A stretch of 64,000 nucleotides of DNA from Escherichia coli (lineage in GTDB: Bacteria; Pseudomonadota; Gammaproteobacteria; Enterobacterales; Enterobacteriaceae): assembly GCF_003334765.1 (NCBI RefSeq), contig NZ_QOWT01000003.1. One strand, 5' to 3'. The position numbers and the translations under genes are program-made. This document shows positions 20,594 to 22,498 of this stretch, one piece after another. Every line of letters starts with the position of its first letter. Within the stretch, counting starts at the first letter, position 1. The notes beneath the pieces were generated by a model that saw nothing but the letters and a program-made list of their open reading frames with translations, searched no databases and was not told the DNA's origin.

Positions 20594-21283
20594 CTACTGG
20601 ATCAGAAAATGACGGGCCAGTAGTGCACTGGTGAAATTCTTCTTCAAATAAAAGCCGCGTGGCAGCGTCAGAATCCGTTCGCCCCGGGCACCAATGGCTT
20701 CGGTAAGCGCTTTCGCATTCGCTGCTTTCGGTCGTATCTGTAAATACTCCCCGTGACGAGCGGTAATCCGCTCAACCTGACCGAGAACAATCATATCCAT
20801 TAATTCTTCCCAGTCTTCGCGTAGCTGCCGGTCTTCCTCTTCATTCGGGCTCCACAGCAACGGTGATCCAACGCGACGCTGCGCCAGCGGGATGCTGCGC
20901 TCGCCTTCAACCGGTATCCACAGTACGCGTTTGAGTTTGTGGCGCACGTGGCTGGTTTCCCAGGTCACCCCGCTATTGCCCGTTAACGGGGCAACACAAA
21001 CGAATGTTGTTTCCAGCGGACGACCAAGACTATCCACAGGGATAGTTTTAAGTTCCACGCCCAGAGCAGCAAAATCTTGCTCAGGTTTACTCCCTGCGCT
21101 GGCACCTAGCCAGATCTCCAGTAACACGCCAATCCAGCCTTTATCGCGTTTTAAATTCTCTGGCGTAACCAGCCCGACAAGTGCCGCCAGTTCTCCCAAT
21201 GTATAACCAGAAAGTTGCTGTGCTTGCGCTAACAACTGTTCTTCAGTTTCGGGAGGAGAGAGCAGTGGGCGAGGTTGGGACAT
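20594..21283 (-). CDS. mutH: DNA mismatch repair endonuclease MutH
   Basis: 229 aa; matches K-12 MutH length and position. Confidence 0.93.
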
Positions 21284-21439
21284 GTCATGATACCTTGATT
21301 AAAAAACAAACAGTAATTATGTGCCGAATATTCGCAGTGTAACTTTTTCCACATGCGTTGTTCAATTCTCTGATTTATATTGCTTTTTAGGTTGCCGGTA
21401 ATCGAGTTGCGCAACACTGCAACGGGTTTTCCAAATCTG

Positions 21440-21850
21440 GTCACTGAAAATAAACAGGATCTTACACCATGTTATCCACAGAAAGCTGGGATAACTGTGA
21501 AAAACCTCCACTACTGTTTCCATTTACAGCCTTGACGTGCGACGAAACTCCAGTTTTTAGTGGTTCAGTGCTTAACTTAGTGGCACATTCTGTGGATAAA
21601 TACGGCATTGGTTGATCTTTCGCCAACCCGTAAATGAGAGGTGTGACCTGGGTCACGAATTACTCTTTTTCATTACTAAAATTACATGTAATGCATTGAC
21701 TGATAATGAATATTTTAAAATGTCTATATCGGGCTTATTCAGAATGCTCCGGGTTTTCCCGTAGTAATTCCGTAGTTCTTCACAACTCTATCCACAGAAA
21801 AGGTGAATAAAAACGGCTATCCACCCCTTCCTCTGTTTATAACTCTGCAC
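21440..21850. promoter_or_regulatory. DARS2-like DnaA-reactivating sequence (cluster of DnaA boxes between mutH and rppH)
   Basis: DnaA-box matches at 21472-21480 (TTATCCACA), 21591-21599 (TGTGGATAA, reverse), 21788-21796 (CTATCCACA) and 21817-21825 (CTATCCACC) inside a 684-bp intergenic region; DARS2 is reported between mutH and ygdP(=rppH). Boundaries approximate. Confidence 0.5.
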
Positions 21851-21967
21851 ATAACTGTGAGTTATTCAATTGTTATTAGTGTGTAATGCCCTGCAGAGAG
21901 TGGTTTACCGTCTTCCTGGAGTATGAAACAATCATTCGTATATAAAGCTTTATTTTGAGGTAGTCCG

Positions 21968-22498
21968 GTGATTGATGACGATGGCTACCGCCCAAACGTA
22001 GGTATCGTGATTTGTAATCGCCAGGGGCAGGTAATGTGGGCCCGGCGATTTGGTCAGCACTCCTGGCAATTTCCGCAAGGCGGAATCAACCCCGGAGAAT
22101 CCGCAGAGCAGGCGATGTACCGTGAATTGTTTGAAGAAGTAGGATTAAGCCGCAAAGACGTTCGAATCCTTGCTTCAACGCGTAACTGGTTGCGCTACAA
22201 ATTACCGAAACGTTTGGTGCGTTGGGACACGAAGCCGGTTTGTATCGGCCAAAAACAAAAATGGTTTCTCTTGCAGCTGGTGAGCGGCGATGCAGAAATC
22301 AATATGCAAACCAGCAGTACACCAGAGTTTGACGGCTGGCGATGGGTAAGTTACTGGTATCCGGTCAGACAGGTGGTGTCATTTAAACGTGATGTCTACC
22401 GTAGGGTAATGAAAGAGTTCGCGAGTGTGGTGATGTCACTGCAGGAAAATACGCCAAAACCACAAAACGCATCTGCTTATCGACGTAAAAGAGGTTAA
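21968..22498 (+). CDS. rppH: RNA pyrophosphohydrolase RppH (NudH, Nudix)
   Basis: 176 aa; Nudix box [22 protein letters not shown]; GTG start. Confidence 0.93.

Follow-up and report, generated by a model that had tools for sequence, protein, structure and literature searches.

In the 64-kb stretch of E. coli DNA analysed here (the window), the gap between the divergent genes mutH and rppH holds a cluster of DnaA boxes, which raises the question of what this cluster is. An initial annotation, confined to positions 21440-21850, had called it 'DARS2-like'. We are nearly certain that it is DARS2 of E. coli, the non-coding element that turns inactive ADP-DnaA into initiation-competent ATP-DnaA. 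The window establishes the identity, position and anatomy of the element, the non-random clustering of its boxes and their conservation across species. DARS2 itself is not new: work since 2009 has resolved it to the level of single boxes and residues and has traced its timing in the cell cycle. For annotation, it is relevant that this replication-timing element appears in the RefSeq E. coli records we examined only as a doubtful ORF of 48 codons, and the base-level map given here can be transferred to any E. coli genome.

Locus and element map

The initial annotation had given 684 bp for the gap, with end points that agree with ours, and had placed DARS2 between mutH and ygdP (rppH); these flanks were confirmed. 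The window is E. coli DNA in the orientation opposite to K-12 MG1655, with ygdQ and ygdR beyond mutH, and the gene order at mutH and rppH is the same in MG1655. By alignment, the gap corresponds to positions 2968978-2969661 of NC_000913.3 and differs in one of 684 bases. This sole mismatch, at window position 21314, is proximal to mutH and outside DARS2, and the DARS2 fragment is identical to that of MG1655 at 455 of 455 bases. Alignment to the published element, which the initial annotation had set as a test, thus yielded full identity with exact primer matches, and 'DARS2-like' was an understatement. In 5425 of the 5426 complete E. coli genomes, both the gap and the 455-bp fragment occur at an identity of at least 95%. 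ETEC H10407 and other strains match the whole gap at 100%; the source strain is not K-12. In one E. coli genome, an IS4-like element lies inside IBS1-2. A search of 21000-22300 against Rfam returned no RNA family at E <= 1. The 64-kb window carries no origin or terminus marker; judged from synteny with MG1655 (~2.97 Mb), DARS2 is likely to lie about halfway from oriC to terC, with DARS1 and datA on the other replichore.

The element map is based on 27 published oligonucleotides, designed for DARS2, its deletions and its substitutions, all of which match the window exactly (Kasho et al. 2014, PMC4245941, Table S1; Frimodt-Moller et al. 2015, PMC4585315). Features are listed in Table 1. The published orientation, with the core at left, is the minus strand of the window. 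The deletion arms of Frimodt-Moller et al. delimit the same core stretch as the deltaCore deletion, and boxes I and II face each other head-to-head across a 5-bp spacer, GAAAA. Box IV is dispensable, and its identity across species is low (0.48). Box V adjoins FBS2-5. Box VI, taken with CTTACACCA at 21461-21469, constitutes the published 'double DnaA box' (PMC11317965, Table 1). The minimal DARS2 is enough to stimulate initiation from a plasmid (PMC4245941).

Table 1. Features of the mutH-rppH gap and its flanks, in window coordinates
Feature	Position	Strand	Basis or remark
mutH	20594-21283	-	flank of DARS2 gap
mutH-rppH divergent gap	21284-21967		684 bp
Full DARS2, 455 bp (pOA61 insert)	21379-21833	-	end primers MutH-2 (21379-21397) and MutH-4 (21815-21833)
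FBS6, non-essential Fis site	21401-21431	.	oligo FIS-4U; outside the range of the initial annotation
ygdT (b4610), annotated ORF, 48 aa	21469-21615	+	RefSeq; spans box VI to FBS2-3
DnaA box VI	21472-21480	+	exact TTATCCACA; gap between Ksh-34 and Ksh-35
FBS4-5	21575-21614		oligo F45L
DnaA box V	21591-21599	-	exact TTATCCACA; gap between Ksh-32 and Ksh-33
EMSA oligo F23	21595-21632		
Essential Fis 21-mer, FBS2-3	21601-21621	.	TACGGCATTGGTTGATCTTTC; MutH-11, MutH-17, MutH-24, MutH-25 exact matches
Minimal DARS2 (pOA67 insert, deltaRight)	21601-21833	-	MutH-11 (21601-21621) and MutH-4 (21815-21833)
subFBS2-3 substitution	21607-21624		Ksh-20 and Ksh-21
FBS1, non-essential Fis site	21643-21673	.	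oligo FIS-1U
IHF sites IBS1-2	21689-21717	.	published translocated IBS block
subIBS1-2 substitution	21696-21710		
DnaA box IV	21735-21743	+	TTATTCAGA; within substituted 21734-21743, between Ksh-30 and Ksh-31
DARS2 core	21776-21810	-	published deltaCore, between MutH-15 (21753-21775) and MutH-14 (21811-21831)
DnaA box III	21776-21784	+	TTCTTCACA, 1 mismatch; in core
DnaA box II	21788-21796	+	CTATCCACA, 1 mismatch; in core
DnaA box I	21802-21810	-	TTATTCACC, 1 mismatch; in core
rppH (formerly ygdP/nudH)	21968-22498	+	flank of DARS2 gap; then ptsP

IBS1-2 is placed between the core and the Fis sites and consists of two 13-mers, 21689-21701 (plus strand) and 21705-21717 (minus strand), which are 3 bp apart and each one mismatch away from TAAnnnnTTGATW. 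A PciI site at 21684 matches the published position beside the IBS (PMC11724364). At FBS2-3, Ksh-20, Ksh-21 and F23L are also exact matches, and the Fis 21-mer holds a conserved GATC at 21614-21617. Within DARS2, the Fis motif scan gave an exact match at FBS1 only (21651-21665); the strict consensus GnnYAnnnnnTRnnC had no mismatch-free match in FBS2-3, the best one there, at 21603-21617, carrying one mismatch. Because the Fis motif is weak at this place, the assignment of FBS2-3 rests on identity to the footprinted sequence. The IHF and Fis scan that the initial annotation had suggested therefore recovers IBS1-2 and FBS1 but cannot find FBS2-3 by motif alone. A promoter scan of the gap gave a single promoter-like site, 21343-21316 on the mutH side, and a terminator scan gave a single terminator-like hairpin, which is the FBS1 palindrome; neither count was above that in shuffled sequence.

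We scanned for DnaA boxes with the consensus TTATNCACA. At least three good boxes and a weaker one had been reported by the initial annotation. Of the good ones listed, 21472-21480 (plus strand) and 21591-21599 (minus strand) are exact, whereas 21788-21796 (plus strand) carries one mismatch; the weaker one, CTATCCACC at 21817-21825 (plus strand), has two, as its grading implied. The identity proposed for the cluster was correct, but only 21788-21796, box II, is part of the core, the other three being box VI, box V and an unnumbered site, and boxes I, III and IV had been missed. Further boxes with one mismatch are found at 21735-21743, 21776-21784, 21802-21810 (minus strand), 21496-21504 (minus strand) and 21834-21842 (minus strand), and another at 21345-21353, outside the range covered by that annotation. 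Box density relative to shuffled DNA, also named there as a test, was measured against 1000 dinucleotide-preserving shuffles of the same 684 bp. The gap has nine boxes with at most one mismatch versus 1.08 +/- 1.04 in shuffles, none of which reached nine, and two exact boxes versus 0.06 expected, a count reached by 1 of the 1000. DARS2 is also the densest 455-bp stretch of the 64-kb window, with 8 boxes, where the mean is 0.40 and the 99th percentile 3.6. Over the 64 kb as a whole, exact boxes show no enrichment (3 versus 2.25 expected). The DnaA-box signal is thus one of local clustering and not an effect of composition. A conserved DnaA-box-like sequence, TGTTTATAAC, is present at 21833-21842, just beyond the 455-bp fragment.

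Core geometry and conservation across species

A DARS is defined by three DnaA boxes, with box I facing the other way from boxes II and III, 5 bp separating I from II, and a spacing that is the same in DARS1 and DARS2 (PMC5742627, PMC6868365). Read on the minus strand from 21810 down to 21776, the window core is TTATTCACC-TTTTC-TGTGGATAG-AGT-TGTGAAGAA. The DARS1 core of MG1655 (813107-813141; positions 1608-1642 of the segment used) is TTATCCACT-ATTCC-TGTGGATAA-CCA-TGTGTATTA, and hence has the same arrangement, with box I separated by 5 bp from an inverted box II, which is followed after 3 bp by box III, likewise inverted. A 35-bp pattern made of the positions shared by DARS1 and DARS2 matches the window only at 21776-21810, even when two mismatches are allowed. 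DARS1 also carries out the same reaction, the release of ADP from ADP-DnaA. It differs, however, in its location in the bioD-uvrB gap and in its high-affinity core boxes, with box II matching the consensus perfectly; over its 101 bp it has neither IHF nor Fis sites, and it needs no accessory proteins for activity, whereas the DARS2 of the window combines low-affinity core boxes with a regulatory arm of ~200 bp or more. DARS1 was rejected as the identity of the window element on account of the mutH and rppH flanks and of the mismatch found in each of the three core boxes. In contrast, the DARS2 of E. coli K-12 (Fujimitsu et al. 2009; PMC4245941) has the same 455 bp, flanks, boxes I-VI, IBS1-2 and FBS1-6, with no difference inside the element.

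Like DARS2, datA is a non-coding cluster of DnaA boxes in which an IHF site, occupied in a cell-cycle-specific manner, is essential. It promotes the opposite reaction, hydrolysis of DnaA-bound ATP via head-to-tail ATP-DnaA oligomers, and its IHF is bound after initiation. Since datA is found next to yjeV and has head-to-tail boxes 2, 3 and 7 together with one IBS, it was rejected on both locus and arrangement. DARS2 resembles oriC in that its DnaA boxes differ in affinity, in having sites for IHF and Fis, and in the cooperative assembly of ATP-DnaA oligomers on low-affinity boxes beside a high-affinity anchor (box V with Va-c). Unlike for oriC, an AT-rich 13-mer unwinding element is mentioned in no DARS2 description that we found, and there is no GATC cluster in the gap, whose 2 GATC in 684 bp do not exceed the 3.7 per kb averaged over the window. 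Also rejected on locus and arrangement was oriC, which is marked by the mnmG-mioC locus, 13-mer unwinding elements and boxes R1-R4; nothing suggests that replication starts at the mutH-rppH gap.

The 35-bp core pattern, which has 20 fixed bases, was scanned against one genome per species and matched at least 120 loci; by an arithmetic estimate, ~0.5 matches would be expected by chance in 298 Gb on two strands. When the loci were sorted by tblastn with the proteins of the window, those among the matches listed comprised 26 mutH-rppH loci, 22 bioD-uvrB loci (DARS1 type) and 72 loci elsewhere. The loci flanked by mutH and rppH come from Enterobacterales (Citrobacter, Enterobacter, E. albertii, Yersinia, Serratia, Erwinia, Photorhabdus, Providencia, Arsenophonus and others) and from Vibrionaceae (Vibrio, Aliivibrio, Grimontia, Salinivibrio, Enterovibrio). 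In this class, the gap is 604-723 bp long and the core is 154-172 bp from the start of rppH.

Identity to the window was taken from an alignment of 19 gaps, those of the window and of 18 other species. It is 0.54 for the gap overall and 0.3-0.5 in the spacers. In the 18 other species, box VI has an identity of 1.00 throughout and box V one of 0.99; boxes III, II and I of the core reach 0.95, 0.90 and 0.94, respectively, and the 5-bp spacer between I and II reaches 0.98. The Fis 21-mer is at 0.67 and the stretch substituted in subFBS2-3 at 0.77, with TGGTTGATCTTT inside the 21-mer kept from E. coli to Vibrio. The fourth box of the initial annotation, 21817-21825, is at 0.28. Selection on the numbered elements is supported independently by these islands of identity, and the 0.28 shows that 21817-21825 is not under it. 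The latter was rejected as a functional box, as it also has two mismatches and lies outside the core deletion.

Spacing is conserved as well. Box V is 182-186 bp from the core in Enterobacterales and 191-193 bp in Vibrionaceae, and box VI is 301-304 bp and 310-313 bp away, respectively. Together with a LexA-type box described below, both keep their distance to the core within ~3 bp across Enterobacterales, with a constant shift of ~7 bp in Vibrionaceae. Boxes V and VI, 'non-essential' in plasmid assays, are therefore as strongly conserved as the core, spacing included.

Function of DARS2 and competing explanations

The function of the element has been established on the K-12 sequence. DARS2 releases ADP in vitro, where IBS1-2 and FBS2-3 are both required, as they are in vivo, and where helical phasing matters; borne on a plasmid, it stimulates initiation and ATP-DnaA production, and boxes V and VI are dispensable for this stimulation of initiation (PMC4245941). 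The head-to-head mechanism of the core boxes has been described (PMC6868365), as has the nucleation at box V of an ATP-DnaA oligomer that evicts Fis, a negative feedback (PMC8682772). IHF is stabilised by negative supercoiling and the contact between Fis and DnaA is direct (PMC11724364). Strains with the core deleted have a lower origin concentration, are asynchronous and pay a fitness cost (PMC4585315). As the source strain carries a sequence identical to that of K-12, we infer from this published work that its DARS2 is active.

DnaA ChIP, which the initial annotation had asked for, is available from published work, since ChIP-seq in MG1655 shows three peaks at DARS2, at 2969124, 2969306 and 2969501 with 78x, 199x and 213x coverage, respectively, listed as 'upstream of mutH' (PMC11317965). 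In NC_000913.3 numbering, these peaks correspond to window positions ~21821 (core), ~21639 (box V side) and ~21444 (box VI side). We accepted this numbering because the DARS1 coordinate of the same paper, 813331, fits the DARS1 core at 813107-813141.

Taken over to the window, the published mechanism would run as follows. ADP-DnaA would assemble on boxes I-III of the core, the site of ADP release, where the protomer at box III would stabilise the oligomer or support oligomerisation (PMC6868365); ADP would leave, and apo-DnaA would depart and then bind ATP. The core would be nearly inactive alone, since its boxes are of low affinity only. IHF at IBS1-2 would bend the DNA sharply, so that Fis at FBS2-3, ~160-175 bp off, could contact and stabilise core-bound DnaA. 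Fis would be abundant only in growing cells, and IHF would bind only before initiation and require negative supercoiling. ATP-DnaA, once accumulated, would form an oligomer extending from box V across the low-affinity boxes overlapping FBS2-3, thereby displacing Fis and turning DARS2 off. In one study, strains without all four extrinsic DnaA regulators are reported to be almost normal (PMC11331064). The physiological weight of DARS2 is therefore debated, while its identity is not, and nothing in the sequence counts against that identity.

Could the conservation and the boxes have another cause? An accidental cluster in AT-rich intergenic DNA might be imagined, given a G+C content of 39% and no enrichment of exact boxes across the window; with no shuffle in 1000 reaching the observed box count and the 35-bp core pattern present at the same locus in at least 26 other species, we give this explanation no weight. 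The annotated ygdT frame raises a different issue. DARS2 is absent as a feature from the RefSeq record of MG1655 and from all other listed E. coli records, which show only the ygdT CDS in its place, as the initial annotation had anticipated in stating that annotation leaves the element out. If ygdT coded for a protein, coding constraint could account for the conservation and the boxes would be incidental. ygdT is annotated in essentially all E. coli genomes, and tblastn found YgdT-like translations with 50-71% similarity in Citrobacter, Enterobacter, Erwinia and Mangrovibacter. However, the ORF is broken in most other genera: Yersinia, Serratia, Erwinia, Mangrovibacter and all Vibrionaceae lack its start codon, and in Enterobacter and Citrobacter werkmanii a stop is reached after 11-39 codons. 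Differences per codon position (0.163, 0.208 and 0.149) show no excess at the third position, conservation under ygdT is concentrated in the 9-bp boxes, and a literature search at the level of titles and abstracts found no report of YgdT as a protein. A coding origin of the conservation is hardly credible on these grounds, and ygdT is probably an annotation artefact laid over regulatory DNA rather than a real gene.

Two further proposals concern what DnaA does at these boxes. They could be mainly transcriptional operators, for the divergent mutH and rppH-ptsP or for an internal promoter, with nucleotide exchange secondary. DnaA is known to act as a transcription factor, and 'upstream of mutH' is how the locus is listed in the ChIP-seq study (PMC11317965). 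In addition, a conserved TTATAAACA at 21834-21842 lies ~60 bp upstream of a conserved -35-like TTTACC and extended -10 of rppH, mutH has the promoter-like site at 21343-21316, and in one study deletion of DARS2 shifted the proteome beyond expectation (PMC12371093). Yet the core boxes are at least 157 bp from the start of rppH and ~490 bp from that of mutH, the I/II/III geometry is that of DARS1 and not that of an operator, and plasmid-borne DARS2 without mutH or rppH stimulates initiation and ATP-DnaA production (PMC4245941). We consider a mainly transcriptional purpose unlikely; an operator role may exist in addition to DARS2 but not as its replacement. More improbable still is that the perfect boxes V and VI serve mainly as a sink titrating DnaA, as was once proposed for datA, and not as part of reactivation. 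The two highest ChIP-seq peaks (199x and 213x) are on the V/VI side compared to 78x at the core (PMC11317965), and both boxes are dispensable on plasmids yet conserved at 0.99-1.00. Two boxes titrate few molecules, though, and box V has a specific, proven role in Fis eviction (PMC8682772). Moreover, the distance of V and VI to the core is fixed within ~3 bp across Enterobacterales, which a simple sink would not need. A small sink role would add to the function of DARS2 and not replace it. The reading of the cluster as DARS2, a site of DnaA reactivation, is thus retained.

A LexA-type box and triple boxes at other loci

The conservation and spacing of boxes V and VI, a LexA-type box and the occurrence of the core geometry elsewhere are apparently unreported in the DARS2 literature that we found. 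The LexA-type box, TACTGTTTCCATTTACAGCC, occupies 21512-21531, with box VI on one side and box V on the other. Its CTGT-N8-ACAG core is perfect, and it agrees with the LexA consensus at 14 of 20 positions. The box is separated from the DARS2 core by 259-262 bp in Enterobacterales and by 267-270 bp in Vibrionaceae, where the left half-site is mostly ATGT or ATGG and fits LexA less well. In Salmonella, mutH has one SOS box 228 bp from its ATG, with a heterology index of 12.99 and a 3.6-fold induction by nalidixic acid (PMC8072944). In E. coli, the corresponding distance to the mutH ATG is 229 bp, and we therefore take the box to be the same site. DARS2 is not mentioned in PMC8072944. For E. coli, our literature search found no paper connecting LexA with DARS2. 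It may be that LexA binds within DARS2 and so couples DnaA reactivation, or mutH expression, to DNA damage. DARS1 is located in the uvrB regulatory region, which is controlled by LexA and DnaA, and LexA binding in DARS2, if real, would parallel this setting.

Among the matches listed, the geometry of the DARS core is also found beyond the enteric and vibrio lineages, especially upstream of priA: at least 25 of the 72 other loci have a DARS-type triple box there, at a median distance of 117 bp. The priA-linked boxes are always on the same side and always divergent from priA, and they occur in Xanthomonas, Stenotrophomonas, Pseudoxanthomonas, Oxalobacteraceae, Chitinibacter, Thiothrix and many MAGs. 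The priA-linked triple box may be the functional DARS of these Xanthomonadales, beta-proteobacterial and other lineages. The combined proposal, in which box V, the LexA-type box and box VI form a conserved regulatory module of rigid spacing, LexA is coupled to DARS2 and the priA triple box is a DARS, seems doubtful to us as a whole. Smaller groups of triple boxes, again among the matches listed, are found near gltA, an ABC-F ATPase gene, hemW and xseA.

Spacing and integrity of DARS2

Among the matches listed, the DARS2 core lies 301–304 bp from DnaA box VI and 182–186 bp from box V in Enterobacterales, and the corresponding distances in Vibrionaceae are 310–313 bp and 191–193 bp. Because boxes V and VI are conserved and their distances to the core are nearly invariant, our data suggest that the entire 455-bp DARS2 operates as a single phased structure. 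Both boxes are highly conserved although they have been described as dispensable for stimulating initiation.

One E. coli genome, a laboratory transconjugant (locus L124, NZ_CP084026.1, 3325–4900), carries an IS4-like element, ISVsa5, within DARS2. The insertion point follows the base matching window position 21703, inside the IHF block IBS1-2, and the Fis sites are therefore split from the core. This strain carries a natural disruption of DARS2.

The annotated gene ygdT overlaps the part of DARS2 that extends from box VI as far as the Fis 21-mer. In most other genera its ORF is truncated or without a start, and substitutions within it showed no codon-position bias. We consider that ygdT is probably an annotation artefact on top of regulatory DNA.

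Features in and around DARS2 (window coordinates)
Feature	Sequence	Position	Strand	Remarks
ygdT		21469–21615	+	annotated gene, 48 aa
DnaA box VI		21472–21480		conservation 1.00 in aligned loci
LexA-type box	TACTGTTTCCATTTACAGCC	21512–21531		perfect CTGT-N8-ACAG; 14/20 vs consensus
Conserved hexamer	TTGACG	21532–21537		directly after LexA-type box
DnaA box V		21591–21599		conservation 0.99 in aligned loci
Fis 21-mer GATC	GATC	21614–21617
CRP-like site	TGTGACCTGGGTCACG	21642–21657		9/10 positions match half-sites TGTGA-N6-TCACA
DnaA-box-like site	TGTTTATAAC	21833–21842	−	reads TTATAAACA, 1 mismatch
Putative rppH promoter		21904–21932		−35 TTTACC (21904–21909), 17-bp spacer, extended −10 TGaAACAAT (21924–21932)

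LexA-type, GATC and CRP-like motifs within DARS2

In the window sequence, boxes VI and V flank the LexA-type box, whose distance to the core is constant in 24 of the 26 related loci among the matches listed. The Vibrionaceae version usually carries ATGT or ATGG as its left half-site. The same site in Salmonella, which lies 228 bp from the mutH ATG, has been scored as an SOS box with a heterology index of 12.99, and mutH was induced 3.6-fold with nalidixic acid (PMC8072944). A literature search found no connection of this box to DARS2.

Of the 18 other species, 17 keep the GATC within the essential Fis 21-mer, the exception being Acerihabitans. Most of these 17, including Citrobacter, Enterobacter, Yersinia and Vibrio, have a second GATC 12–22 bp away, and E. 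coli and E. albertii are without this second site. When hemimethylated, GATC pairs at this spacing could be bound by SeqA. The CRP-like site overlaps FBS1, a non-essential Fis site, and was also called as a hairpin by a terminator scan. E. albertii, Citrobacter, Enterobacter and Mangrovibacter retain GTGA-N6-TCAC with variable spacers.

The rppH side of DARS2

The DnaA-box-like site lies immediately beyond the published 455-bp fragment, with the core on one side and the rppH promoter region on the other; each of the 19 aligned species keeps it, and two Vibrio species have a perfect TTATACACA there. The putative rppH promoter is likewise present in every aligned species and scores under the threshold of the consensus scan; its conservation is what makes it the probable promoter of rppH.

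Triple DnaA boxes at priA and other loci

At least 25 loci matching the DARS core pattern have a triple DnaA box of the DARS type upstream of priA, a gene for replication restart; the median distance is 117 bp, and the box is divergent from priA in all of them (L003, L005, L009, L011, L018, L021, L022, L025, L026, L044, L050, L061, L066–L068, L074, L077, L078, L080, L100, L102, L103, L109, L110 and L117). The layout is box I, 5 bp, inverted box II, 3 bp and inverted box III, with mostly perfect consensus boxes. Among the matches listed, the carriers include Xanthomonadales, several beta-proteobacteria, Thiothrix and many MAGs. Triple boxes in smaller groups lie near gltA (at least seven loci), an ABC-F ATPase gene (at least seven), hemW (at least six) and xseA (at least four). 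These and the priA-linked boxes may be DARS counterparts beyond enterics and vibrios.
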